DNA from: Eledone cirrhosa
Lineage: Eukaryota
Length of the DNA: 64,000 nucleotides
Reading direction: 5' to 3'
NCBI GenBank assembly: GCA_964016885.1
Contig: OZ024742.1
Coordinates: 221,650,001 to 221,714,000, forward strand
In this document: piece by piece, positions 11,919 through 61,294 of the stretch
Numbering within the stretch: the first letter of the stretch is position 1
Layout: each line of letters starts with the position of its first letter
Position numbers and translations under genes: made by a program
Notes under the pieces: model-generated
Told to the model about the DNA's origin: nothing
The model's database searches: none
What the model saw: the letters and a program-made list of their open reading frames with translations, nothing else

Positions 11919-14469
11919 CCCTTTAGCATTCACATTGAATTGTCAAATGTCATGTTCATCTATTCGCATTATTTTCACTTAATTATACTCAAGAGGGTTA
12001 TCAATTTTATTTGTTTCTAATTACTTTAATTTTCTATGTGCAGACTTGAAATTTTGTCAGTAGACGTTTAAAGAACTATAATTTACAATTATATATGTTT
12101 ACCTGATTTTTTTTTGTTAAATTTGACTTTTATGGGCAGGTAAAATTAATTAACAGGTGTAAAAGTAATAACTTTATGGATAAACACAAAAATTTAAACT
12201 TTATCTGCCTTACCTGTTAGATTTGTTGCAAAAAAATCCAATAATGATCTAGATGCTGATTTCCATCAATTCTAGCAGTTTTCCGAACAGGTGAATTAAT
12301 TAAAAATGCAGGTGTAATCAGTACAATGTTTTAGTCTTTCTCTACATTCTAGGCAAATATTTTCATTGAAAAAAATGTATAAAACCTTTTCACCAGTCAA
12401 AATAATATTGGCAATGTACTCTTACACAATGTACGGTGTAAAATTACGTAACAGAATGTTCCCAATATATAAGTTCATTAACAGGTGTGATGCAGGTGTG
12501 TCACAGGTGAATGCAGGTGTTTTTGTATATGTGTGCTAATATATTTTTAAAATATTGTTTTCAATATTGTCAGACAATATTTCTATCGTGATACTGCCCA
12601 AAGCACCCTTTACATAAGGGCACTTTGCAAAAGGAACACATAAATAGGGTTTGGATTGCGTAACCTTTAACAGTTTTTCTCTTTTGCAAAGAGCACAATC
12701 GGCAAACCTTCCTCCTACCATCAATTCTCTCCACTTTATGAAAATCAATATTTTCTTTGTGGACCACTGCTAATTTTGATTTTTTTTCCCAGCTTTGTGT
12801 TTGCGAGAAGTATATCCCCCACGTAGCTGGGATGCAATGTCCACGCGAAATTTCATGTGGCAGTAGTCCTTTGGTGGTGGCGGATCCTTGTGGCTTTTAG
12901 TAAATACAATATAAGAATTCACAATGGTTAAATTCACTAAAAACCACGATGTATCTCCACCATTTCTTTCCAGGGCGTCCAACTGGGTAATACGCGCAAT
13001 ATTGGTCGGATTTGTCAACCCCACCCATATATTTATTGTAGGAGAGGTTAACTAAAGGTCTACCCTCGGCCCCAACACCTGGTTGTTGGTTAGAACTCGG
13101 GAACAAAATTTGCCGTTTGTCTTTGAACACTGTGGCTAACATGTTCTCTTTTTGCATTTGGAGAATGTCTCCTCTGTTTTTTTAGTTTCGCAACTTTTAT
13201 TTCTTGGGGTAGCCCTTTCCGATTGCTCATTATTGTGCCGCAGGTGTATGTATTTACAAGGGCAAGATCCTCTGCTAAAAGCACCGAAGAAAAAAGACGG
13301 TCATAATAAATGTGTCTGTGTTGAAAGTGGAAGGGTTGAGTCAGCGACCACACAACATCGTAACCCAACCCGTGCTTTCACTCTCCGTTAAGTTTTTTTC
13401 CTGTGTAAACATCAAAGTTTACACAGTATCCCGTGTCCGATTCACACAGTTCCCACACTTTGATGCCCCATTTGGTGGGTTTAGCTGGCATATACTGTCT
13501 GAAATGAACCCTACCCTTATACCCAATCATAGCTTCATCAACACTAAGATTTTTTCCAGGTAAATACATACTTTTAAATTTTTCTGTCAACATTTCAATT
13601 AATGGTCGTACTTTGTACAGTGGGTCGTAATTCGATTCATTTCTACCAGGGGCATTTGTAGTATCAACCAGATGCAAATACTGGTTTAATTTTATAAATC
13701 TCGTTTTGGCCATAATACTAGATATATAAGGGTCACCAAACCTTATATCAGTACTCCAATAATTCCACAGTCGTGGAAATTGTTTAATACCAAACAATGT
13801 TTATGGTAAAAAACGCTTTCATTTCGGCAGAATCTGTCGGATGCCATAACAGATCGGGTTTTCCTCGATTAGAAATCTGTTGTTGTGCATAGCGATTTGT
13901 CTCTTCTGCCACAACTTCGAAGAAAGTTTGTGGTAGAAATAAAAAAAAATAATCCAGAGCTTTAGCATCGGGTGGTAATGTGTGTTGTGGTCCAGAATTT
14001 TCATTAAAATCCGAAACATGTATCGGTGTTGTTTCTTTCAACCACGTTGGTGTTTTTTCAATGGTGTCAGATATCTCTTCGCTTTCACTTTCAAAGTGAC
14101 TATCATCATCATCAGATATATCTGATTCATTTGAAGATAAATCACTGATATTATCTTCTGTTTCTTTTTTATCTTGAATGTCGTAGGATGTAAAACCTTC
14201 AAAATCGTTGTCGCTGCTTTCGGAAGCCATGTTACAATTTCAAAGTTAAAAACACGTGTTATCACAAGGTCTTTAACTATACTAAGAGTTAATTTTCGCG
14301 CGTAAGGGCTTTATCTCGCTGTAATCTCGAATTGACGAGATTTTGATGATGTCAATGTTTATTTTTAGAAGGAGATCTACGAGTGGTCTGAAATGTCGGT
14401 TTTTGTCGGTTTGAATAAATGAAAGGGGACATAATTTTGTCGGTTTTTGTCGCTTTGAACGCTAAAGGG
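11919..14469 (-). mobile_element. Full-length decayed piggyBac DNA transposon (2551 bp)
   Basis: TTAA duplications at 11915-11918 and 14470-14473; TIRs CCCTTTAGCATTCA / TGAACGCTAAAGGG (13 of 14 match); internal transposase remnants. Confidence 0.93.
12570..14230 (-). pseudogene. Frameshifted piggyBac (PGBD-type) transposase
   Basis: Six consecutive - strand ORF pieces: acidic N-terminus, SVDEAMI..KGR..RQYMPAKPTKWGIK, YYDRLFSS, TCGT..NRKGLP, YNKYMGGVDKSDQ (DDD triad) and C-terminal CxxC..CxxC..C..C..H cysteine-rich domain. Confidence 0.92.
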
Positions 14470-32967: not shown

Positions 32968-33157
32968 CCACCTGGTTTTGCAGACGTGGGCAGCAATTTG
33001 CTACCCCCTCCTGCTGATGACACTTTCAGAGATCAGATATATGTGCCTCCACAACATCATGGAAGTCAGGGTAACATTCAGACTGGTTACCAAAGTGATA
33101 TGAACAGAGGTGGTGGGACTGGCAGTGGTGGTGGAGGTAATGCTGGTGGTGGAGCTG
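32968..33157 (+). CDS. CTNNB1: Beta-catenin exon 14 (Pro/Gly-rich C-terminal tail: PPGFADVGSNLLPPPADD...RGGGTGSGGGGNAGGGA)
   Basis: tttctag acceptor, G|gtgagt donor; open frame; its 190 nt are needed to bridge phase 0 (exon 13) to phase 1 (exon 15). Confidence 0.88.
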
Positions 33158-38645: not shown

Positions 38646-39217
38646 TGTTTACTCGAGAGAAGGCTGCGTTGGTATGGACACGTGATGCGCATGAACGTCG
38701 ATAGCTGTATTACAAAGTGCAGGGCAATAAAGATAGACGGTAGCCACGGAATAGGCAGACCTAGAAAAACATGGGATGAGCTGATAAACTCCGACCTCAC
38801 ACACTTACACCTCTCCAAGACAATGTCACTGGACCGTGACCTTTGGCGGTACTCAGTAACAGAGAAGACCCGCCTTGCCAGTAGGCATCTCTAACAAACT
38901 ACACCCCGTCCCGCCACCACCCTCACCCCATCCACACCACCCCGTTCTATGTAAAGTTATGTTGGTGCCGCGAAACAAATGAGATCGTGTAGGTGTCACG
39001 ACAAAAAACACACAGTCCACGCTGTAATGTGGCCGTGTAGGCAACACGGTAAAAAACCTCCCAGACCCACACTGTAAATGTGGTTGGTGTTAGGAAGGGC
39101 ATCCAACTGTAGAAAACCTGCCAGACAGTCCTATGCGAGCAAGACAATCACTCTTGCCTCAAGTGGGACTACCCCCGTCCAAACCCATGCAAGCGTGGAA
39201 CACGGGACGTTAAACGT

Positions 39218-39248
<31 letters not shown>
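38646..39248 (+). mobile_element. RTE LINE 3' fragment (second subfamily)
   Basis: [28 protein letters not shown], 3' UTR, (GAT)n tail. Confidence 0.92.
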
Positions 39249-41869: not shown

Positions 41870-41922
41870 ATATATGTGTATATATATATATGTATATATA
41901 TGTATATATATATATATATGTA

Positions 41923-43553
41923 CCAGGGAAAGCCACCACTGATGCCCTCTTCCTTGTGAGGCAATTACAGGAAAAGTACCTAGCTAAAAGTAAGCCACTC
42001 TACTTGGCATTTGTCGACCTTGAGAAAGCCTTTGACAGAGTTCCACGTGCAGTAATCTGGTGGGCTCTTAGAAAACTAGGAGTAGATGAATGACTTGTGA
42101 AAGCGGTACAAGCCATGTATAGGGGAGCAGTCAGCAAAGTTAGGATTGGCAATGAGTATAGCGAGGAATTTAGCGTACAGGTTGGGGTCCACCAGGGCTC
42201 TGTTCTTAGCCCTCTCCTGTTCATCATAGTCCTGCAGGCAATAACGGAGGAGTTTAAGACCGGATGCCCATGGGAACTCCTGTATGCTGATGACCTCGCA
42301 CTCATAGCTGAATCTATGGTAGAACTAGAGAATAAATTCCAAACCTGGAAGCAGGGACTAGAGAGAAAGGGCCTCAAAGTCAACATGACAAAGACTAAGG
42401 TCCTTATAAGTAGACGAGAAAACAGAACCCAGGTCCCCTCAGGGAAATGGCCTTGCTCAGTATGTAGGAAAGGTGTAGGTAGGAACTCCATTCTCTGCCC
42501 CAAATGCAAACAATGGGTACACAAGAGATGTAGCGGGATCTCAGGAAGCTTAATTAAGAATGTAGGATTCACATGCAGCAGCTGTGCTGAAACAGCAAGC
42601 AAACAGCCACAGGAAACAAGTACCACCAATCTCTGGGAGGGCCCTGTAGAAACAGTAGACAGCTTCTGCTACCTAGGTGACCGAATTAGCAACGGAGGTG
42701 GGTGTTCAGAAAGTACAATAACTAGGGTAAGAACGGGATGGAAGAAGTTTAGGGAACTACTACCACTGCTAGCTGCAAAAGGCTTCTCCCTCAGAATGAA
42801 AGGCAGACTGTATGATGCGTGTATCCGAACAGCGATGTTGCATGGTAGTGAGACCTGGGCGCTGAAGGTGGAAGACTTACGTAGATTAGAGAGAAACGAA
42901 GCCTGCATGCTCCGATGGATGTGTAACAGTAATATACGTGAACGACAAAGCATAAAGGAATTGAGAGAGAGACTGAGCATAAGAGGAATCAAATGCTGCG
43001 TGCAGGAGATGCGGTTACGCTGGTATGGACATGTGATGCGTATGAAGGATGCCAGCTGCATAAAAAGGTGCAGAGCACTAGAAGTTGATGGAAACCGCGG
43101 AGTGGGGAGACCCAAGATGACTTGGGATGAGGTGATAAAAGCCGACCTTACCCAACTACACCTCTCAAAGTCAATGACACACGACCGTGACTTCTGGCGT
43201 CACGCAGTAATACAGGGTACCCGACCTCCCATGGGTACATGCTGAAGCATATAAACAATATGCCCCCACTCCCCCCACCGCAAGGTGGTCGTGGAGGTGC
43301 CACGGCAAAAAAGCATCCAGCCCACACTGTAAAGTGGACGTGTAGGCGCCACGAAAAAGCACCCAGCACTCACTGTAAATGAGGTTGGTGTTAGGAAGGG
43401 CATCCAGCTGTAGAAATCAAGCCAGATCAGTTCCTGTATGAGCAAGGCATGGTCAGCCGACCAGACACTGCCCACAACAGGACAACCCGTCTAACCCATG
43501 CTAGCGTGGAAGAACGGACGTAAAACGGTGATGATGATGATGATGATGATGAT
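41923..43553 (+). mobile_element. 5'-truncated RTE-clade LINE: RT domain, C-terminus, 3' UTR and (GAT)n tail; one in-frame stop at 42091
   Basis: [45 protein letters not shown] and [11 protein letters not shown] motifs; ORF ends 43245; (GAT)n at 43530-43553. Confidence 0.95.
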
Positions 43554-43687: not shown

Positions 43688-44285
43688 GGTCACCAGTTGG
43701 TGCTACTGGTAACATGTATCCCAGTACAACCTGTCCCATGGTCGGGTCGTTGGCGACTAAACTGGCAACCCCACCAAGGTTTCTTGGTGAGGAGGGTGAC
43801 TTTGGACATCCTGCAGGACTAAAAACAAAACCTGGCAAAGGAGCTCTTAAGAGTCAATGGCCATCCAAAATCACCGGGAGAGATGACCCCTTAGCCTTTG
43901 TCAAGGCAGAATTCTAAGAGAAGGAAAACTCTGATATAACACCTGCAACCCTGATGGTATCCAATGATGTTGACTTATTCTTCTTTTTGGTAAATATCAT
44001 CTTGGTTAAGAGAGTGGGACTGGCTTTGTGCAGTGCCTTTGCTCACTATAAAAGCTTCACGGCACAGGCATTGCTTTATATCTGGAGATCTCTCTACACT
44101 TGTCGTCACATGGTACCAAAGGCCCAACACTATGTGTCAATAATTGTCACAGGTGTAGTGTTTGTACCAGAGTTTTCAAGTCGCTGGCTGGACTAAAAGT
44201 CACACTTGTTTAGCGCATCGGTAGGGGTTCTCCTACATGGATATAAAGTAGTGGCCGTACTCGAAAATGAGTTGGCAGCCACCAT
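43688..44285 (+). mobile_element. Probable non-autonomous, internally deleted RTE-type element inside microsatellite
   Basis: Discrete ~600-bp complex island flanked by (TATG)n. Its 3' part encodes a degenerate C2H2-like [15 protein letters not shown]; its 5' part resembles RTE 5' UTRs (from memory, unverified). Confidence 0.45.
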
Positions 44286-45123: not shown

Positions 45124-45167
<44 letters not shown>

Positions 45168-45169
<2 letters not shown>

Positions 45170-45984
45170 CATCATCATCATCATCAACGTTTAACGTCCG
45201 TGTTCCACGCTTGCATGGGTTTGGACGGGGGTAGTCCCACTTGAGGCAAGAGTGATTGTCTTGCTCGCATAGGACTGTCTGGCAGGTTTTCTACAGTTGG
45301 ATGCCCTTCCTAACACCAACCACATTTACAGTGTGGGTCTGGGAGGTTTTTACCGTGTTGCCTACACGGCCACATTACAGCGTGGACTGTGTGTTTTTTT
45401 GTCGTGACACCTACACGATCTCATTTGTTTCGGCCTCGATGGCGCGGCACCAACATAACTTTACATAGAACGGGTGGTGTGGATGGGGTGGGGGTGGTGG
45501 GACGGGGTGTATTTTGTTAGAGATGCCTACTGGCTGGAGTAGGTTTTACTATATATTTAGGTAAGGCGGGTCTTCTCTGTTACTGAGTACCGCCAAAGGT
45601 CTCGGTCCAGTGACATTGTCTTGGAGAGGTGTAAGTGTGTGATGTCGGAGTTTATCAGCTCGTCCCAGGTTTTTCTAGGTCTGCCTATTCCGTGACTACC
45701 GTCTATCTTTATTGCCCTGCACTTTGTTATACAGCTATCGACTTTCATGCGCATCACGTGTCCATACCAACGTAGCCTTCTCTCGAGTAAACAACATCTG
45801 ATCCCTCTTATCTCTAATTTTTTCCTTAGTTCGTTTATGCTTTGCCGTTCACGTATATTACTGTTACACATCCAGCGGAGCATGCAAGCTTCGTTCCTCT
45901 CTAGTCTGCGTATATCCTCTGCACACAATGCCCAGGTCTCACTGCCATGCAGCATTGCTGTTCGTATGCAGGCATCGTACAACA
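45168..45984 (-). mobile_element. RTE LINE 3' fragment (second subfamily), antisense
   Basis: ORF 45557..45985 ([17 protein letters not shown]); 3' UTR is the reverse complement of 38895-39248; (ATC)n tail. Confidence 0.92.
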
Positions 45985-46012
45985 TATATATGTATATATA
46001 TATATATATATG

Positions 46013-46089
<77 letters not shown>

Positions 46090-46094
46090 GTATG

Positions 46095-46147
<53 letters not shown>

Positions 46148-46160
46148 GTATGTATGTATG

Positions 46161-46228
<68 letters not shown>

Positions 46229-46261
46229 GTATATATATATATGTATGTATGTATATATATG

Positions 46262-46298
<37 letters not shown>

Positions 46299-46425
46299 GT
46301 ATGTATGTATATATATGTATATATATGTATATATATATATGTATGTATGTATATATATGTATGTATGTATGTATATATATGTATGTATGTATATATATGT
46401 ATGTATGTATATATATGTATGTATG

Positions 46426-46458
<33 letters not shown>

Positions 46459-46579
46459 GTATGTATATATATGTATGTATGTATATATATATATGTATGT
46501 ATGTATATATATATATGTATGTATGTATATATATATATGTATGTATATGTATGTATGTATATATATATGTATGTATGTA

Positions 46580-46624
<45 letters not shown>

Positions 46625-46639
46625 GTATATATATATATG

Positions 46640-46691
<52 letters not shown>

Positions 46692-46743
46692 TGTATATAT
46701 ATGTATATATATATATGTATATATATATATGTATATATATATG

Positions 46744-46774
<31 letters not shown>

Positions 46775-46793
46775 GTATATATATATGTATATG

Positions 46794-46824
<31 letters not shown>

Positions 46825-46921
46825 GTATGTATATATATGTATATATATATATGTATATGTATATATATATATGTATGTATATATATGTATATATATATAT
46901 GTATATGTATATATATATATG

Positions 46922-46968
<47 letters not shown>

Positions 46969-47189
46969 GTATATATATATATGTATATATATATATGTAT
47001 ATATATATATGTATATATATATATGTATATATATATATGTATATATATATATGTATATATATGTATATATATATATGTATATATATATATGTATATATAT
47101 GTATATATATATATGTATATATATATATGTATATATATGTATATATATATATGTATATATATATATGTATATATGTATATATATATATG

Positions 47190-47220
<31 letters not shown>

Positions 47221-47239
47221 GTATATATATATGTATATG

Positions 47240-47372
<133 letters not shown>

Positions 47373-47437
47373 GTATGTATATATATATATGTATGTATGT
47401 ATATGTATGTATGTATATATATATATATGTATGTATG

Positions 47438-47471
<34 letters not shown>

Positions 47472-47532
47472 TGTATGTATGTATATGTATGTATGTATAT
47501 GTATGTATGTATGTATATATATATATGTATGT

Positions 47533-47566
<34 letters not shown>

Positions 47567-47581
47567 GTATATATATATATG

Positions 47582-47684
<103 letters not shown>

Positions 47685-47855
47685 GTATATATATGTATGT
47701 ATGTATATATATGTATGTATATGTATGTATGTATGTATGTATATATATGTATGTATGTATGTATATATATGTATGTATGTATATATATGTATGTATGTAT
47801 GTATATATATGTATGTATGTATGTATATATATGTATGTATGTATGTATATATATG

Positions 47856-47887
<32 letters not shown>

Positions 47888-47931
47888 TATATATATGTAT
47901 ATATATGTATGTATGTATATATGTATGTATG

Positions 47932-47965
<34 letters not shown>

Positions 47966-47993
47966 TATGTATGTATGTATGTATATATGTATA

Positions 47994-48026
<33 letters not shown>

Positions 48027-48085
48027 ATGTATGTATGTATATATATATATGTATGTATATATATATATATATGTATGTATATATA

Positions 48086-48121
<36 letters not shown>

Positions 48122-48311
48122 TATATGTATGTATGTATGTATGTATATATGTATGTATGTATGTATATATGTATGTATATATATGTATATATGTATGTAT
48201 ATATATATGTATGTATATATATATGTATGTATATATATATGTATGTATATATATATGTGTATATATATATATATATATGTATGTATATATATATGTATGT
48301 ATATATATATG

Positions 48312-48380
<69 letters not shown>

Positions 48381-48381
48381 G

Positions 48382-48571
<190 letters not shown>

Positions 48572-48605
48572 TGTATGTATATATATATATGTATGTATAT
48601 ATATG

Positions 48606-48639
<34 letters not shown>

Positions 48640-48786
48640 TATATGTATGTATGTATATATATATGTATGTATATATATATGTATGTATGTATGTATATAT
48701 ATATGTATGTATATATATATGTATGTATGTATATATATATGTATGTATGTGTATATATATATATATGTATGTATATATATATGTAT

Positions 48787-48987
<201 letters not shown>

Positions 48988-48992
48988 TGTAT

Positions 48993-51900
48993 ATTAGAAA
49001 TTGGAATAAATGCTCTGAAATAGCGATATATATGTGAATATAGACATAGAATATTCGAAAATATTCTGTATGTTTATAATAAACATTTTGAAGACCTAAT
49101 CGCTATAGAATAGAATACGTCACGTATTACAATTAGATTCTCGATAAAAGCAAGGGAAGTAAGTCTACGCGTTTCATTCTTGTTAGAATTCATCAGGACT
49201 ACATATCCAGTGCTTTCATCGAGAATGACACAGCTAGAGACTTATAGAATACTTAGCTGTGTACAGGAACTGGTTTGAAAGAGCGGTTGCCGGTCAGGCA
49301 GAAATTAGAAATTGGAATAAATGCTCTGAAATAGCGATATATATGTGAATATAGACATAGAATATTCGAAAATATTCTGTATGTTTATAATAAACATTTT
49401 GAAGACCTAATCGCTATAGAATAGAATACGTCACGTATTACAATTAGATTCTCGATAAAAGCAAGGGAAGTAAGTCTACGCGTTTCATTCTTGTTAGAAT
49501 TCATCAGGACTACATATCCAGTGCTTTCATCGAGAATGACACAGCTAGAGACTTATAGAATACTTAGCTGTGTACAGGAACTGGTTTGAAAGAGCGGTTG
49601 CCGGTCAGGCAGAAATTAGAAATTGGAATAAATGCTCTGAAATAGCGATATATATGTGAATATAGACATAGAATATTCGAAAATATTCTGTATGTTTATA
49701 ATAAACATTTTGAAGACCTAATCGCTATAGAATAGAATACGTCACGTATTACAATTAGATTCTCGATAAAAGCAAGGGAAGTAAGTCTACGCGTTTCATT
49801 CTTGTTAGAATTCATCAGGACTACATATCCAGTGCTTTCATCGAGAATGACACAGCTAGAGACTTATAGAATACTTAGCTGTGTACAGGAACTGGTTTGA
49901 AAGAGCGGTTGCCGGTCAGGCAGAAATTAGAAATTGGAATAAATGCTCTGAAATAGCGATATATATGTGAATATAGACATAGAATATTCGAAAATATTCT
50001 GTATGTTTATAATAAACATTTTGAAGACCTAATCGCTATAGAATAGAATACGTCACGTATTACAATTAGATTCTCGATAAAAGCAAGGGAAGTAAGTCTA
50101 CGCGTTTCATTCTTGTTAGAATTCATCAGGACTACATATCCAGTGCTTTCATCGAGAATGACACAGCTAGAGACTTATAGAATACTTAGCTGTGTACAGG
50201 AACTGGTTTGAAAGAGCGGTTGCCGGTCAGGCAGAAATTAGAAATTGGAATAAATGCTCTGAAATAGCGATATATATGTGAATATAGACATAGAATATTC
50301 GAAAATATTCTGTATGTTTATAATAAACATTTTGAAGACCTAATCGCTATAGAATAGAATACGTCACGTATTACAATTAGATTCTCGATAAAAGCAAGGG
50401 AAGTAAGTCTACGCGTTTCATTCTTGTTAGAATTCATCAGGACTACATATCCAGTGCTTTCATCGAGAATGACACAGCTAGAGACTTATAGAATACTTAG
50501 CTGTGTACAGGAACTGGTTTGAAAGAGCGGTTGCCGGTCAGGCAGAAATTAGAAATTGGAATAAATGCTCTGAAATAGCGATATATATGTGAATATAGAC
50601 ATAGAATATTCGAAAATATTCTGTATGTTTATAATAAACATTTTGAAGACCTAATCGCTATAGAATAGAATACGTCACGTATTACAATTAGATTCTCGAT
50701 AAAAGCAAGGGAAGTAAGTCTACGCGTTTCATTCTTGTTAGAATTCATCAGGACTACATATCCAGTGCTTTCATCGAGAATGACACAGCTAGAGACTTAT
50801 AGAATACTTAGCTGTGTACAGGAACTGGTTTGAAAGAGCGGTTGCCGGTCAGGCAGAAATTAGAAATTGGAATAAATGCTCTGAAATAGCGATATATATG
50901 TGAATATAGACATAGAATATTCGAAAATATTCTGTATGTTTATAATAAACATTTTGAAGACCTAATCGCTATAGAATAGAATACGTCACGTATTACAATT
51001 AGATTCTCGATAAAAGCAAGGGAAGTAAGTCTACGCGTTTCATTCTTGTTAGAATTCATCAGGACTACATATCCAGTGCTTTCATCGAGAATGACACAGC
51101 TAGAGACTTATAGAATACTTAGCTGTGTACAGGAACTGGTTTGAAAGAGCGGTTGCCGGTCAGGCAGAAATTAGAAATTGGAATAAATGCTCTGAAATAG
51201 CGATATATATGTGAATATAGACATAGAATATTCGAAAATATTCTGTATGTTTATAATAAACATTTTGAAGACCTAATCGCTATAGAATAGAATACGTCAC
51301 GTATTACAATTAGATTCTCGATAAAAGCAAGGGAAGTAAGTCTACGCGTTTCATTCTTGTTAGAATTCATCAGGACTACATATCCAGTGCTTTCATCGAG
51401 AATGACACAGCTAGAGACTTATAGAATACTTAGCTGTGTACAGGAACTGGTTTGAAAGAGCGGTTGCCGGTCAGGCAGAAATTAGAAATTGGAATAAATG
51501 CTCTGAAATAGCGATATATATGTGAATATAGACATAGAATATTCGAAAATATTCTGTATGTTTATAATAAACATTTTGAAGACCTAATCGCTATAGAATA
51601 GAATACGTCACGTATTACAATTAGATTCTCGATAAAAGCAAGGGAAGTAAGTCTACGCGTTTCATTCTTGTTAGAATTCATCAGGACTACATATCCAGTG
51701 CTTTCATCGAGAATGACACAGCTAGAGACTTATAGAATACTTAGCTGTGTACAGGAACTGGTTTGAAAGAGCGGTTGCCGGTCAGGCAGAAATTAGAAAT
51801 TGGAATAAATGCTCTGAAATAGCGATATATATGTGAATATAGACATAGAATATTCGAAAATATTCTGTATGTTTATAATAAACATTTTGAAGACCTAATC

Positions 51901-52270
51901 GCTATAGAATAGAATACGTCACGTATTACAATTAGATTCTCGATAAAAGCAAGGGAAGTAAGTCTACGCGTTTCATTCTTGTTAGAATTCATCAGGACTA
52001 CATATCCAGTGCTTTCATCGAGAATGACACAGCTAGAGACTTATAGAATACTTAGCTGTGTACAGGAACTGGTTTGAAAGAGCGGTTGCCGGTCAGGCAG
52101 AAATTAGAAATTGGAATAAATGCTCTGAAATAGCGATATATATGTGAATATAGACATAGAATATTCGAAAATATTCTGTATGTTTATAATAAACATTTTG
52201 AAGACCTAATCGCTATAGAATAGAATACGTCACGTATTACAATTAGATTCTCGATAAAAGCAAGGGAAGT
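48993..52270 (-). repeat. Tandem array of 311-bp units (about 10.5 copies) with 10 hammerhead ribozyme motifs on the - strand; retrozyme/Penelope-type satellite, left arm
   Basis: Unit starts (attagaaattgg) at 48993, 49304, 49615...; tcatcag (reverse complement of CTGATGA) at 49190, 49501 ... 51989, period 311. Confidence 0.93.
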
Positions 52271-55200
52271 GTCATTCTCGATGAAAGCACTGGATATGTA
52301 GTCCTGATGAATTCTAACAAGAATGAAACGCGTAGACTTACTTCCCTTGCTTTTATCGAGAATCTAATTGTAATACGTGACGTATTCTATTCTATAGCGA
52401 TTAGGTCTTCAAAATGTTTATTATAAACATACAGAATATTTTCGAATATTCTATGTCTATATTCACATATATATCGCTATTTCAGAGCATTTATTCCAAT
52501 TTCTAATTTCTGCCTGACCGGCAACCGCTCTTTCAAACCAGTTCCTGTACACAGCTAAGTATTCTATAAGTCTCTAGCTGTGTCATTCTCGATGAAAGCA
52601 CTGGATATGTAGTCCTGATGAATTCTAACAAGAATGAAACGCGTAGACTTACTTCCCTTGCTTTTATCGAGAATCTAATTGTAATACGTGACGTATTCTA
52701 TTCTATAGCGATTAGGTCTTCAAAATGTTTATTATAAACATACAGAATATTTTCGAATATTCTATGTCTATATTCACATATATATCGCTATTTCAGAGCA
52801 TTTATTCCAATTTCTAATTTCTGCCTGACCGGCAACCGCTCTTCCAAACCAGTTCCTGTACACAGCTAAGTATTCTATAAGTCTCTAGCTGTGTCATTCT
52901 CGATGAAAGCACTGGATATGTAGTCCTGATGAATTCTAACAAGAATGAAACGCGTAGACTTACTTCCCTTGCTTTTATCGAGAATCTAATTGTAATACGT
53001 GACGTATTCTATTCTATAGCGATTAGGTCTTCAAAATGTTTATTATAAACATACAGAATATTTTCGAATATTCTATGTCTATATTCACATATATATCGCT
53101 ATTTCAGAGCATTTATTCCAATTTCTAATTTCTGCCTGACCGGCAACCGCTCTTTCAAACCAGTTCCTGTACACAGCTAAGTATTCTATAAGTCTCTAGC
53201 TGTGTCATTCTCGATGAAAGCACTGGATATGTAGTCCTGATGAATTCTAACAAGAATGAAACGCGTAGACTTACTTCCCTTGCTTTTATCGAGAATCTAA
53301 TTGTAATACGTGACGTATTCTATTCTATAGCGATTAGGTCTTCAAAATGTTTATTATAAACATACAGAATATTTTCGAATATTCTATGTCTATATTCACA
53401 TATATATCGCTATTTCAGAGCATTTATTCCAATTTCTAATTTCTGCCTGACCGGCAACCGCTCTTTCAAACCAGTTCCTGTACACAGCTAAGTATTCTAT
53501 AAGTCTCTAGCTGTGTCATTCTCGATGAAAGCACTGGATATGTAGTCCTGATGAATTCTAACAAGAATGAAACGCGTAGACTTACTTCCCTTGCTTTTAT
53601 CGAGAATCTAATTGTAATACGTGACGTATTCTATTCTATAGCGATTAGGTCTTCAAAATGTTTATTATAAACATACAGAATATTTTCGAATATTCTATGT
53701 CTATATTCACATATATATCGCTATTTCAGAGCATTTATTCCAATTTCTAATTTCTGCCTGACCGGCAACCGCTCTTTCAAACCAGTTCCTGTACACAGCT
53801 AAGTATTCTATAAGTCTCTAGCTGTGTCATTCTCGATGAAAGCACTGGATATGTAGTCCTGATGAATTCTAACAAGAATGAAACGCGTAGACTTACTTCC
53901 CTTGCTTTTATCGAGAATCTAATTGTAATACGTGACGTATTCTATTCTATAGCGATTAGGTCTTCAAAATGTTTATTATAAACATACAGAATATTTTCGA
54001 ATATTCTATGTCTATATTCACATATATATCGCTATTTCAGAGCATTTATTCCAATTTCTAATTTCTGCCTGACCGGCAACCGCTCTTTCAAACCAGTTCC
54101 TGTACACAGCTAAGTATTCTATAAGTCTCTAGCTGTGTCATTCTCGATGAAAGCACTGGATATGTAGTCCTGATGAATTCTAACAAGAATGAAACGCGTA
54201 GACTTACTTCCCTTGCTTTTATCGAGAATCTAATTGTAATACGTGACGTATTCTATTCTATAGCGATTAGGTCTTCAAAATGTTTATTATAAACATACAG
54301 AATATTTTCGAATATTCTATGTCTATATTCACATATATATCGCTATTTCAGAGCATTTATTCCAATTTCTAATTTCTGCCTGACCGGCAACCGCTCTTTC
54401 AAACCAGTTCCTGTACACAGCTAAGTATTCTATAAGTCTCTAGCTGTGTCATTCTCGATGAAAGCACTGGATATGTAGTCCTGATGAATTCTAACAAGAA
54501 TGAAACGCGTAGACTTACTTCCCTTGCTTTTATCGAGAATCTAATTGTAATACGTGACGTATTCTATTCTATAGCGATTAGGTCTTCAAAATGTTTATTA
54601 TAAACATACAGAATATTTTCGAATATTCTATGTCTATATTCACATATATATCGCTATTTCAGAGCATTTATTCCAATTTCTAATTTCTGCCTGACCGGCA
54701 ACCGCTCTTTCAAACCAGTTCCTGTACACAGCTAAGTATTCTATAAGTCTCTAGCTGTGTCATTCTCGATGAAAGCACTGGATATGTAGTCCTGATGAAT
54801 TCTAACAAGAATGAAACGCGTAGACTTACTTCCCTTGCTTTTATCGAGAATCTAATTGTAATACGTGACGTATTCTATTCTATAGCGATTAGGTCTTCAA
54901 AATGTTTATTATAAACATACAGAATATTTTCGAATATTCTATGTCTATATTCACATATATATCGCTATTTCAGAGCATTTATTCCAATTTCTAATTTCTG
55001 CCTGACCGGCAACCGCTCTTTCAAACCAGTTCCTGTACACAGCTAAGTATTCTATAAGTCTCTAGCTGTGTCATTCTCGATGAAAGCACTGGATATGTAG
55101 TCCTGATGAATTCTAACAAGAATGAAACGCGTAGACTTACTTCCCTTGCTTTTATCGAGAATCTAATTGTAATACGTGACGTATTCTATTCTATAGCGAT

Positions 55201-55883
55201 TAGGTCTTCAAAATGTTTATTATAAACATACAGAATATTTTCGAATATTCTATGTCTATATTCACATATATATCGCTATTTCAGAGCATTTATTCCAATT
55301 TCTAATTTCTGCCTGACCGGCAACCGCTCTTTCAAACCAGTTCCTGTACACAGCTAAGTATTCTATAAGTCTCTAGCTGTGTCATTCTCGATGAAAGCAC
55401 TGGATATGTAGTCCTGATGAATTCTAACAAGAATGAAACGCGTAGACTTACTTCCCTTGCTTTTATCGAGAATCTAATTGTAATACGTGACGTATTCTAT
55501 TCTATAGCGATTAGGTCTTCAAAATGTTTATTATAAACATACAGAATATTTTCGAATATTCTATGTCTATATTCACATATATATCGCTATTTCAGAGCAT
55601 TTATTCCAATTTCTAATTTCTGCCTGACCGGCAACCGCTCTTTCAAACCAGTTCCTGTACACAGCTAAGTATTCTATAAGTCTCTAGCTGTGTCATTCTC
55701 GATGAAAGCACTGGATATGTAGTCCTGATGAATTCTAACAAGAATGAAACGCGTAGACTTACTTCCCTTGCTTTTATCGAGAATCTAATTGTAATACGTG
55801 ACGTATTCTATTCTATAGCGATTAGGTCTTCAAAATGTTTATTATAAACATACAGAATATTTTCGAATATTCTATGTCTATAT
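52269..55883 (+). repeat. Tandem array of the same 311-bp unit inverted (about 11.6 copies) with 12 hammerhead ribozyme motifs on the + strand; right arm
   Basis: Reverse complement of the left-arm unit; CTGATGA at 52304, 52615, 52926 ... 54481 ... 55725, period 311. One substitution noticed by eye (52844). Confidence 0.93.
52298..52341 (+). ncRNA. Minimal type I hammerhead ribozyme (representative copy; repeated every 311 nt)
   Basis: gtagtc (stem I) - CTGATGA - attct aaca agaat (stem II, 5 bp) - GAAA - CGCG - TA^ - gacttac (stem I partner, one bulge). Complete CUGANGA/GAAA/UH core. Palindromic ACGCGU stem III is typical of Penelope-associated dimeric hammerheads. Predicted cleavage after 52334. 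Confidence 0.88.
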
Positions 55884-55886
55884 ATG

Positions 55887-55991
<105 letters not shown>

Positions 55992-55992
55992 G

Positions 55993-56167
<175 letters not shown>

Positions 56168-56190
56168 GTATGTATATATATATGTATATG

Positions 56191-56319
<129 letters not shown>

Positions 56320-56421
56320 GTATGTATGTATATATATATGTATGTATATATATATGTATGTATGTATATATATATGTATGTATGTGTATATATATATATA
56401 TGTATGTATATATATATGTAT

Positions 56422-56485
<64 letters not shown>

Positions 56486-56508
56486 GTATATATATATGTA
56501 TATATATG

Positions 56509-56677
<169 letters not shown>

Positions 56678-56702
56678 GTATATATATATGTATATATATA
56701 TG

Positions 56703-56737
<35 letters not shown>

Positions 56738-56738
56738 G

Positions 56739-56769
<31 letters not shown>

Positions 56770-56770
56770 G

Positions 56771-56837
<67 letters not shown>

Positions 56838-56850
56838 GTATGTATATATG

Positions 56851-57087
<237 letters not shown>

Positions 57088-57386
57088 ATATATATATATG
57101 TATGTATATATATGTATATATATATATGTATGTATATATATATATATATATGTATGTATATATATGTATATATATATATGTATATATATATATGTATGTA
57201 TATATATATATATGTATGTATGTATATGTATATATATATATGTATATATATATATGTATGTATATATATATATATGTATGTATGTATATGTATATATATA
57301 TATATATGTATGTATATATATATATATGTATGTATGTATATGTATATATATATATATATGTATGTATATATATATGTATATATATG

Positions 57387-57419
<33 letters not shown>

Positions 57420-57430
57420 GTATATATATG

Positions 57431-57463
<33 letters not shown>

Positions 57464-57474
57464 GTATATATATG

Positions 57475-57585
<111 letters not shown>

Positions 57586-57702
57586 GTATGTATATATATA
57601 TGTATGTATGTATGTATATATATATATGTATGTATATATGTATGTATGTATATATTTATGTATATGTATGTATGTATGTATATATATATATGTATATATA
57701 TG

Positions 57703-57779
<77 letters not shown>

Positions 57780-57806
57780 GTATATATATACATATATATA
57801 TATATG

Positions 57807-57837
<31 letters not shown>

Positions 57838-57838
57838 G

Positions 57839-57869
<31 letters not shown>

Positions 57870-57871
57870 GT

Positions 57872-57905
<34 letters not shown>

Positions 57906-58187
57906 GTATATATATACATATATATACGTATGTATGTATATATATATATGTATGTATATATATATATGTATGTATATATATATGTATGTATGTATATATA
58001 TATATATGTATGTATATACATATATATACATATGTATGTATATATATATATGTATGTATATATATATATGTATGTATATATATATATATGTATGTATATA
58101 TATATATATGTATGTATATATATATATATGTATGTATATATATATATATGTATGTATATATATATATATATATATGTATATGTATGT

Positions 58188-58219
<32 letters not shown>

Positions 58220-58288
58220 GTATATATATACATATATATACATATGTATGTATATATATATATGTATGTATATATATATATATGTATG

Positions 58289-58319
<31 letters not shown>

Positions 58320-58340
58320 GTATGTATATATGTATGTATG

Positions 58341-58371
<31 letters not shown>

Positions 58372-58387
58372 GTATGTATATTGTGAA

Positions 58388-58503
58388 GGCGTGTGGCTGA
58401 ATGGTTAGAGTATTGGATTCACAATCGTGAGGTTGTGAGTTCGATTCCTGAACCAGGCGATGCGTTATGTCCTTGAGCAAGACACTTTATTTCACGTTGC
58501 TCC
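58388..58503 (+). mobile_element. tRNA-derived SINE with CORE-like domain; other copies near 2350-2600, 6830-7000 (-), 16012-16140, 16405-16720, 20149-20350, 33570-33705 (-)
   Basis: Pol III A box TGGCTGAATGG, B box GTTCGATTCC, followed by tgtccttgagcaagacacttt. Confidence 0.75.
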
Positions 58504-58621
58504 TTCTACCTGGAGTTGTGACCGATAGATAGTATTAGCAATTGGAAAGACCAACGGAAACATAGTTTCCTCGGTCCGATTTGACGAAAGTCGATCGACT
58601 AGAAAAAATGTATGTATATAT

Positions 58622-58662
<41 letters not shown>

Positions 58663-59442
58663 TATATGTATGTATATATATATATATATGTATGTATGTA
58701 TGTATATATATATATATGTATGTATGTATATATATATATATATATGTATGTATATATATATCTATATATGTATGTATATATATATCTATATATATATGTA
58801 TGTATATATATATATATATATGTATGTATATATATATATATCTATATATGTATGTATATATATATCTATATATGTATGTATGTATATGTATGTATGTATG
58901 TATATATATGTATGTATGTATATATATGTATATATATATATGTATGTATGTATGTATATATATGTATATATATATATATATGTATGTATATATATGTATA
59001 TATATATATATATGTATATGTATGTATGTATATGTATGTATATATATGTATGTATGTGTATGTATGTATGTATATGTATGTATATATATATGTATATATA
59101 TGTATATATATGTATATATGTATATATATATGTATATATGTATATATATGTATATGTATATATATGTATATATGTGTGTATATATGTATATATGTGTGTA
59201 TATATGTGTGTATATATGTATATATGTGTATATATGTATATATGTATGTATATGTATATATGTATATATATGTATATGTATATGTATATATGTATATATA
59301 TGTGTATATATGTATATATATGTATATATATGTATATAGGTATTGAAGTTTTGTTGAAGACAGAAAAAGTCATAGGAGTGAAGAGTGCTCTATGTAAGTA
59401 CCAGAGCAAAATTTAATGTATAAAAAACCACAATACAATATA

Positions 59443-59520
59443 ATTACCTCATTACCAGAGGTTTCCCGAATAAGGCGAATACGAAAGAAACGTCTTCATT
59501 CGTTCGTCGGACGAGGCAAT
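59443..59520 (-). ncRNA. Degenerate type I hammerhead-like motif, unrelated in sequence to the array
   Basis: - strand reads attgcctcgt - CCGACGA - long imperfect stem II (cgaatga/ttattcg) - GAAA - CC tct GG - TA^ - atgaggtaat. Stem I has 10 bp (2 GU). The core carries U4>C and the first stem II pair is mismatched. Confidence 0.5.
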
Positions 59521-61091
59521 ATAAAACATAGCTAAATATTTGGAAAGTCTCCTCAAGAAATGCAAAAAAAAATTATGTAAATATAGGTGAAGGTAATACA
59601 ATAGACATAAAATATATAAAAAAAATTTTAAGAAATATAGTTAGGTGTGTGTGTGTATAGTGAAAATGTGTGCGTAAATATATATATGAGGGTAAGTATA
59701 TCTATGTATATGTAATTACAGACACAGACATGAATGTCCGGTTGACAGGTATACAGAAAAACAGGGTATTAGATACATTATAAGAATATGAAGGCACGCG
59801 TATAAACACACACACACACACACACACACGCGCGTACACTTATATGAGGAAGAAAAAGAGGTAAGGGAGTTTAATAGTAAAAAGAAAGTATCATTCTCGA
59901 TATATTTATAAAAATGGAACAATAATTTAGAAAGAAAAAAAATTTCGAAGTAAAGAAAACAAACAAGGTACACGCGTACATACACACATATATCTATAAG
60001 AAACGTATATATATATACACACGAAACGTGCAGACAAAAGCGTATGCAAGTATACATACGCACACAGGATGCACACATATACATACATACACCTCGCCCC
60101 ATGTATATCTGATCACGCGTACGTACGCGACTGTATACTCACACACATACGCACACTTACACATCCATACATTCAGTACGTACACACACACACATACATA
60201 CTCACGCACGTTGACCCGCTTACATGTGCACACATAAAAATAAGAATGTAAAAAACATAGATGTAAAAACACACACACACACACACATATATATACACGC
60301 ACAAGCGCGCACATACGGAGGCGTTCGTGTACATATACAGAAAGTATACACATAGATACAGGGTGTAAAAACGGCCTTGTGAATAAGTGAGTACAAATAT
60401 AAAAAAATATAAAAATGGCTGCGAAATAACAGAAAATATCTGGAGTGGAAAACGCAAGTGACTTGTATAATCAGGTAGATATACATATATATGTGTGTGT
60501 GTGTGTACCTGTTTTATTTGTCTTGCAGCTCAGCAGGTTGATGTGTAAAGATGAGTTAAATAAATACGTTAGTTAATCCTTTTGTTACTATATTTCTAAT
60601 GAAACAGTCTAATGATTTTTAAATCATTTTGAAAATAATGAGGAATTTAGTAATATAACTTTCTCATTAAGTTGGTGTTTAGAGCTTAAAGGTTCTTATG
60701 TAGAATTATGATGGAAGGTTTTAAGATAAACACAATCTTCCTTCACAATTCATGAAGTTATGCTCCAAACACAAGCTTAATAATGAAAACATTAGTCATA
60801 TTATTAAAACCCTCAAATTTTTGATTATTTTCAAAATTATTTGAAAAGTTTAGATGTCTTTTGTTCTTTTTAAATATGGTAACAAAAGTGATAGGTGCAT
60901 GTATGGCTGTATACAGTTACAAAATTTTGCTTCACAGCTTCTAGCCAAAATATCTTATGAGTGAATTTGGTAGACAGAAATTTTGCAGGAACCCATTGTG
61001 TGTGCAGTGTCTTCTTTTCATTAGAAATATGCTAACAAAAAGGTTAATTTAATGTCTGTATATTGACTATTGTGTTTATATTATTTTTCAG

Positions 61092-61294
61092 CATATGATC
61101 AAGTGCCTGTGGATTCTATGCAAGGGTTAGAAATCGGGAGCCACCAGGGCAGTGGATACGGACCAATGGATAATCTACCAGATCTTGGGCCTCCCCCTGC
61201 AGAGGACTTAAATTTTGAAAACTTAGATACTGGCCTACCTGCCCACACAGGAGATAACAACCAGGGTATGGCCTGGTACGACACTGACTTATAA
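61092..61294 (+). CDS. CTNNB1: Beta-catenin exon 15, terminal coding exon (AYDQVPVDSMQGLEI...GMAWYDTDL*)
   Basis: ttttcag acceptor; PVDSMQGLEI motif and C-terminal PDZ-binding WYDTDL followed by TAA. Confidence 0.97.

Follow-up and report, generated by a model that had tools for sequence, protein, structure and literature searches.

The closest described systems to the one reported here are metazoan non-long terminal repeat (non-LTR) retrozymes and endonuclease-positive (EN+) Penelope-like elements. Vertebrate retrozymes have been tied to the pseudo-LTRs (pLTRs) of Penelope by phylogeny, with local amplification discussed (10.64898/2026.07.22.740005), and a circular template giving tandem cDNA has been proposed (PMC4209133, PMC7229834). 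The hallmarks of Penelope insertions are a 30-40 bp tail at one end and head-to-head arms (PMC8557442, PMC3846280), and a Penelope protein in purified form was found to cut both strands and extend them, with starts at two internal sites bounding the tail; it is predicted to form a dimer (PMC11167929). The main text of PMC7229834 mentions no inverted or head-to-head arrays, rolling or octopus, and the available portions of 10.64898/2026.07.22.740005 report neither inverted arms nor fixed ends. The origin of tandem and inverted Penelope insertions and the role of their hammerheads form the open question addressed here, using a 64,000-nt stretch of the Eledone cirrhosa genome (contig OZ024742.1, positions 221,650,001 to 221,714,000; hereafter, the window) in which an array of 311-nt hammerhead ribozyme units lies within the gene for beta-catenin.

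The two-armed layout of this array and the fixed 3′ ends of its arms, both overlooked in a preliminary description of the DNA, hold mechanistic information. We observed directly two arms ending at sites A and B, 35 nt apart, TA targets, scattered central junctions, one haplotype common to both arms and a matching A/B footprint in an autonomous Penelope-like element. The array is one insertion, likely made by a Penelope-like reverse transcriptase (RT)/endonuclease acting in trans on a single circular 311-nt RNA (probability about 0.7). Taken alone, Penelope-type integration is highly probable.

Two opposed arms of 311-nt hammerhead units

Positions 48993-55883 contain 22 hammerhead cores in 311-nt units, of which 12 read on the plus and 10 on the minus strand. 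Tandem Repeats Finder resolved two arrays, 48993-52270 and 52269-55883, which are opposite in orientation and stand head-to-head, their 5′ ends meeting at 52269-52270. The features are listed below; A and B are the sites at which arms end across loci, and are presumably the two start sites of reverse transcription.

48993..52270, minus strand: left arm of 10.54 units, including 10 hammerhead cores, from a central 5′ end (unit position 6) to a 3′ end at 173 (site B side, with tail), abutting the TA repeat
52269..55883, plus strand: right arm of 11.62 units, including 12 hammerhead cores, from a central 5′ end (unit position 246) to a 3′ end at 128 (site A), abutting the TA repeat
52269..52270, no strand: head-to-head junction, a 2-nt overlap GT (microhomology)
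52335..52645, plus strand: cleavage-to-cleavage monomer of 311 nt, the predicted circular RNA
52466..52500, plus strand: 35-nt 'tail' from site A (~131) to site B (~166), on the first full plus unit, defined from the arm ends of 26 two-arm loci
52515, plus strand: unit position 181, T in all units of both window arms and G in other arrays

The arms are almost perfectly periodic, with 0 mismatches to the periodic monomer in 3278 nt on the left and 1 in 3615 nt on the right (position 52844). With a GC content of 34%, the unit fits the 150-450 bp, low-GC range of retrozymes. It has no protein-coding capacity (longest stop-to-stop frame 55 aa, 39 aa from ATG), and no open reading frame (ORF) for RT plus GIY-YIG is found in cis within its 311 nt.

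Every unit carries the core CTGATGA-ATTCT-AACA-AGAAT-GAAA-CGCG-TA, which is that of a type I hammerhead with predicted activity. The first copy on the plus strand is laid out as follows.

52274..52363, plus strand: first plus-strand type I hammerhead domain, from sequence and folding
52274-52289/52348-52363, plus strand: outer helix of 16 bp
Within this domain: stem I AGTC/GACT; core 52304-52310; stem II 52311-52324; GAAA; palindromic ACGCGT stem III
After 52334, plus strand: predicted cleavage site, placed by the hammerhead consensus

The circular monomer folds at -66.2 kcal/mol (z = -4.0 versus 100 dinucleotide shuffles). For the helix III palindrome ACGCGU, a hairpin, in which four bases would be closed by one pair, is unfavourable (+6.0 kcal/mol) and a two-unit duplex is favourable (-7.5 kcal/mol), energetics that match the dimer-active design of PMC4209133, in which multimers cleave and monomer circles are spared. 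Rfam gave zero matches at the gathering score in the window, the best ribozyme match being Hammerhead_HH9 (17.8 bits, E 0.16, gathering 52), so that the ribozyme call is based on motif, folding and covariation: three families maintain the outer helix and stems I and II with differing sequences, and core position 7 and loop II vary among family members. Rfam microRNA matches at the arm junction were discarded as a product of the inversion.

Much of the preliminary description is borne out by these data. Its 22 hammerheads in 311-nt units were all recovered (22/22 cores), the unit indeed lacks an ORF of 60 aa or more, folding reproduced both the stems and the 16-bp outer helix, and the location in a beta-catenin intron agrees with exon matches and a GT-AG intron at 33158-61091. 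What had been taken for a single tandem array proved to be two arms of opposite orientation, and the Rfam hammerhead models suggested as a check stayed below threshold.

Arms end at a fixed pair of sites across loci

The 30 loci examined were that of the window itself, 14 drawn from the top sequence matches, a further 11 selected by their position along contig C1 and 4 selected for an allele, with arm-end positions entered by hand. Two arms were present at 26 of these loci, head-to-head in every case, as in the inverted, 5′-truncated copies of Penelope, and at 10 of the 12 loci taken by position on C1. Outer 3′ ends map either to site A, between unit positions 128 and 140 (131 where TA overlap permits reading), or to site B, between 165 and 173 (mostly 166). 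They are paired A with B at 25 of the 26 two-arm loci, the last combining A with position 155 (near B), and A/A or B/B pairs were never seen; if ends were independent, such pairing would have a probability of 0.5^25 = 3e-8. The A-B spacing of ~35 nt corresponds to the 30-40 bp tail at one end only that characterizes Penelope insertions.

The central 5′ ends, by comparison, are uniform round the unit (Kolmogorov-Smirnov p 0.54, n=52), and those of the two arms are unrelated, lying ≤10 nt apart at 1 of 26 loci against 1.8 expected by chance. Central junctions (n=26, rough for the C1 loci) comprised 13 overlaps, 2 blunt joins and 11 with filler; overlaps measured 1-6 nt in about half of the loci, and most others had short filler. 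Flanks were of TA type at 29 of the 30 loci. The remaining insertion, L050, lies in AT-rich unique DNA and has a target duplication of 9-12 bp, a feature that is unreadable inside the TA runs elsewhere. Short-read contigs from an independent run contained 14 other left-arm/right-arm joints and one site A-TA end, demonstrating that the two-arm layout is not a long-read artefact.

Small duplications, one-base slips or an extra short inversion occur near junctions or within arms at L035, L036, L037, L041 and L045, which suggests RT template jumps.

The two arms of an insertion share a haplotype

The 271 full units in 29 loci resolved into 14 locus haplotypes. At 19 of the 20 loci with full units on both sides, the two arms have an identical major haplotype; at the remaining locus, L057, the only left-arm unit departs at one position. 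The probability that two C1 loci have a haplotype in common is 0.036 (0.17 in the biased full set). Units differing from the locus majority are few (26/271). A minority type recurred within a locus once, in non-adjacent units three apart, and no minority variant was found in both arms of a locus. This all-or-one pattern is predicted by a single-unit bottleneck followed by repeated copying.

Exact genome matches to the 181T variant of the window array number 26, of which 21 are at the window locus and the remaining 5 stand singly, each as one unit on another haplotype. The assembly contains no array that could have been the donor of 181T. Variants 36T (73 matches) and 159G (37 matches) also occur either throughout whole arrays or in lone units; they were rejected as private alleles, being common to several arrays.

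At unit position 181 (window 52515; L056-L059), a G-to-T change recurs in lone units on several unrelated haplotypes. It lies within a GC-rich hairpin, and the position is a possible hot spot of RT error or damage.

A young, abundant family with sister families and candidate enzymes

The exact core has 3,924 matches in the 3.0-Gb genome. A looser ribozyme pattern allowing variants has 17,895, compared with 12 for the reversed control, and is hence not due to chance. Among the first 100 of these 17,895 listed matches, 99 belong to the 311-nt family, at 16 loci over 31 Mb, from which a rough extrapolation gives 1,500-3,000 loci. Arms at the 16 loci among the matches listed run minus-then-plus at 10, on one strand only at 5 and plus-then-minus at 0, with 1 incompletely covered. 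The family is real, young and abundant and, at the level of its sequence, has the defining properties of a non-LTR retrozyme; being young and abundant, it allows each insertion to be used as a record of one reaction.

We also identified two older sister retrozyme families, the first at L061:2425-2880 and L098-L127 (2,675 candidates) and the second at L128, L136, L140 and L141. Both are homologous to the 311-nt unit (z 25 and 16) and have the A/B region and end sites in common with it, but their hammerhead stems differ and their arms are shorter. Their arms end at sites homologous to A and B, except in copy L109, which ends A/A and has mirrored flanks. Sister copies at L061 and L148 adjoin Penelope ORFs, but are opposite or nested in position. 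Separately, a tandem repeat of 511 bp at L092:8054 and 8565, whose own hammerhead has the palindrome ACTAGT as helix III, is likely a further retrozyme family, and L087 and L090 (8091-8190 in L090) contain a short palindromic repeat in TA repeats with a hammerhead-like core and a stem II near that of the 311-nt family.

GIY-YIG candidates in the genome number 10,596. A young autonomous element (L218, L173-L217) has many intact frames of 900-905 aa with RVT_1 and GIY-YIG, making the 900-aa element of L218 a candidate enzyme. By its motif layout we take it to be Poseidon-like, and others to be Neptune-like. Its two-armed insertions end at A and B in 10 of 10 pairs with both ends covered (8 fetched, plus L197 and L201; L177, with one end missing, was excluded). 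The A-B distance is 44 nt and the targets are TA repeats; in one arm, units of 3127 nt are repeated in tandem, with ends as in other arms. The family forms head-to-head pairs and has a very reduced hammerhead with a palindromic AATT helix III.

Sampling a small part of the GIY-YIG candidates, we found no ORF joined to the 311-nt unit at 38 GIY-YIG loci, 30 sister-family loci, 30 Poseidon-like loci, 15 other ACGCGT hammerheads or 30 loci at which the base following the conserved tail motif is a variant one. The linkage to a Penelope ORF for which the preliminary description had proposed to look was therefore not seen at the loci sampled. The copy-number check that it had suggested returned thousands of dispersed, near-identical arrays, and the hammerhead stems show covariation across three families. 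Its view of a young, non-autonomous retrozyme moved by Penelope is supported by the dispersed arrays, the tail, the head-to-head layout and the TA targets, and the Penelope link additionally by intact Penelope-like ORFs with a matching A/B footprint.

A rolling-circle model and its alternatives

We infer cleavage, the circle, rolling and the identity of the enzyme in the following model. Tandem transcripts would self-cleave as double hammerheads, neighbouring units supplying the palindromic ACGCGU helix III, and the monomers would be ligated to circles in which a lone hammerhead would be unable to form helix III. A Penelope protein would then bind the A/B region and cut both strands of a (TA)n target, whose two 3′ ends would prime on a single RNA, at A and at B respectively. 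Each RT would circle the RNA many times, producing concatemers of one haplotype, and end joining of the two cDNAs, through short overlaps or with added filler, would give the head-to-head centre. Two 340-nt contigs closing one unit (X5, X6; contigs of unknown kind) were uninformative on RNA circles.

Several points weigh against this model. RNA, circle and cleavage are predictions from DNA. A published Penelope assay worked without ribozyme cleavage and mainly on unprocessed RNA (PMC11167929), and among 9 Xenopus retrozyme dimers, cleavage in vitro was seen for only 1 (10.64898/2026.07.22.740005). Our sampling was biased, 14 of the 30 loci having been drawn from the top sequence matches and 4 selected because they carry 181T, and 4 of the 30 are single-armed. 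The 5′ ends are slightly enriched near the cleavage site (8 of 52 versus 4 expected, p 0.045, in a window chosen post hoc), as would be equally expected of a linear cleaved template. The haploid assembly may miss a 181T donor array, while 36T and 159G, being common to several arrays, are lineage markers and do not exclude a linear donor. Finally, no pLTR homology to the 311-nt unit was found in six sampled Penelope 3′ ends (z -0.8 to 3.0).

The alternative that survives best, although we consider it unlikely, retains Penelope priming at two sites and places it on a long, linear transcript of many units, made from a homogeneous donor array, rendering the circle unnecessary. This would suit the in vitro preference for unprocessed RNA, for which no reads ended at the cleavage site (PMC11167929), the slight 5′-end excess and the finding that the haplotype of most arrays occurs in other arrays too. 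It would nevertheless need at least 10 internal ribozymes to escape cleavage and, for the window, a 181T donor that the assembly lacks. A new variant spread across an array would still require a one-unit bottleneck, the variants seen are fixed or in lone units, and no locus has a minority variant in both arms.

Local tandem expansion of each arm after a short two-armed insertion, by unequal crossing over or slippage, is improbable. Proposed in the Discussion of 10.64898/2026.07.22.740005, it would likewise yield one haplotype across arms, and the host sites are unstable microsatellites. Expansion of this kind is, however, contradicted by the 271 units, among which no run of adjacent units has a minority variant in common, by the recurrence of 5-25-unit arrays at most young loci and by the autonomous element, whose 3127-nt tandem arm has the same ends.

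We regard as very improbable both an inversion formed by fold-back self-priming on an antisense template, a process proposed for Penelope (PMC3846280), and movement of the repeat by a long interspersed element (LINE) such as the RTE elements of the intron. One locus (L041) does have a palindromic centre, but the unrelated 5′ ends of the two arms largely refute this reading. RTE fragments do lie within the same microsatellite, yet the arrays have no poly(A) or simple-repeat tail, and their fixed internal A/B ends fit Penelope and not the RTE 3′ ends in this intron. It is scarcely credible that the inverted uniform array is a long-read fold-back or assembly artefact, since, prone as identical units are to mis-counting or polishing to uniformity, the flanks are not mirror images and have the same G skew on both sides, the arms end at different sites, singletons are retained, and the other joints and site A-TA end recur in independent short-read contigs; the concern is limited to the exact unit number. 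Read chimera and fold-back self-priming were accordingly rejected on the basis of non-mirrored flanks, short-read joints and unrelated 5′ ends.

The host intron

An armadillo exon in the window matches beta-catenin (E 3e-48), and the last coding exon is 98% identical to an Argonauta beta-catenin. The array sits in the GT-AG intron between the two exons listed below, which is the last coding intron of the gene; the flanking microsatellites are given with them.

32968..33157, plus strand: beta-catenin exon preceding the host intron, with AG/GT borders and an open frame; assigned by its position between the armadillo exons and the last exon
61092..61294, plus strand: last coding exon of beta-catenin (Argonauta match)
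45984..48992, no strand: left (TA)n/(TATG)n microsatellite target, strand bias equal to that of the right flank
55884..59338, no strand: right (TA)n/(TATG)n microsatellite target

As both flanks consist of TA/TATG with equal strand bias, the insertion splits one continuous repeat. The 28-kb intron is, over 33700-59340, mainly TA/TATG microsatellite with stacked insertions, including RTE-type pieces at ~38650-39240, 41920-43550 (a 383-aa frame with RVT_1) and 45140-45980 and a further element at 43690-44283. A non-repetitive insert at the right end of the microsatellite (59340-60460), with a hammerhead-like, non-canonical motif near 59490-59520, is possibly a Penelope 3′ end on the minus strand. 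Elsewhere in the window, broken frames at 12570-14300 on the minus strand show a resemblance to a piggyBac-type transposase.

Implications

Each insertion records one reaction, with fixed paired starts, one haplotype per event and presumably many turns per arm, and retrozyme mobility and Penelope enzymes are connected through a footprint instead of through co-occurrence. A direct test of the circular template in Penelope mobilization becomes feasible, with a 311-nt template of mapped start sites and intact 900-aa candidate enzymes. On this model, palindromic satellite arrays can also arise in one step. In the present case this is within an essential gene, that for beta-catenin, and its pre-mRNA would carry a 3.3-kb perfect hairpin. 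On balance, although with less assurance than for the window insertion itself, we favour a general picture in which Penelope machinery rolls round one ribozyme circle from both cut ends, so that one event would create a 3-8 kb palindromic satellite, at a thousand sites at least; this would amount to genomic proof of a circular-RNA intermediate, and introns would gain kilobase-long perfect double-stranded RNA hairpins.

Comparison with known systems

In L1 twin priming, two target ends prime on one RNA and leave a head-to-head inversion with a microhomology joint; synthesis starts at the poly(A) end and at a variable internal site, and each stretch is copied once. In the 311-nt family, by contrast, both start sites are fixed and the whole unit is copied many times per arm.

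With metazoan non-LTR retrozymes (PMC7229834; 10.64898/2026.07.22.740005), the family has in common low-GC units of 150-450 bp in tandem, each carrying a type I hammerhead and lacking an ORF, a weak palindromic helix III as in axolotl and newt families, a U-U variant at the helix II base and co-occurrence with Penelope-like elements. Published arrays are head-to-tail, whereas those of the 311-nt family are two-armed with paired A/B ends. Published RNAs cleave and circularize, whereas this family is known from its DNA alone, and 21 of 57 Xenopus families matched pLTRs (10.64898/2026.07.22.740005), whereas no such homology was found here. The literature searched contained no octopus retrozyme or inverted-arm retrozyme; subscription papers and repeat databases fell outside it, and the supplement of PMC7229834 may list a cephalopod family. 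Likewise, the retrozyme and Penelope texts compared do not describe retrozyme insertions with two arms, start sites in pairs or a separate haplotype for each event.

EN+ Penelope-like elements (Poseidon, Neptune, Naiad; PMC8557442, PMC3846280, PMC11167929, PMC4209133) have in common with the family inverted copies standing head-to-head, a one-ended tail of 30-40 bp, targets that are AT-rich or (TA)n, 5′ joins with microhomology, a minimal hammerhead with a palindromic helix III and possibly a short target duplication, which measures 8-10 bp in those elements and 9-12 bp at L050. They differ in that the 311-nt family lacks an RT/endonuclease ORF in cis and has up to ~17 copies per arm, compared with one or two. 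Retrozymes themselves are already known; the two-armed integration footprint with paired A/B ends was not found in the literature searched.

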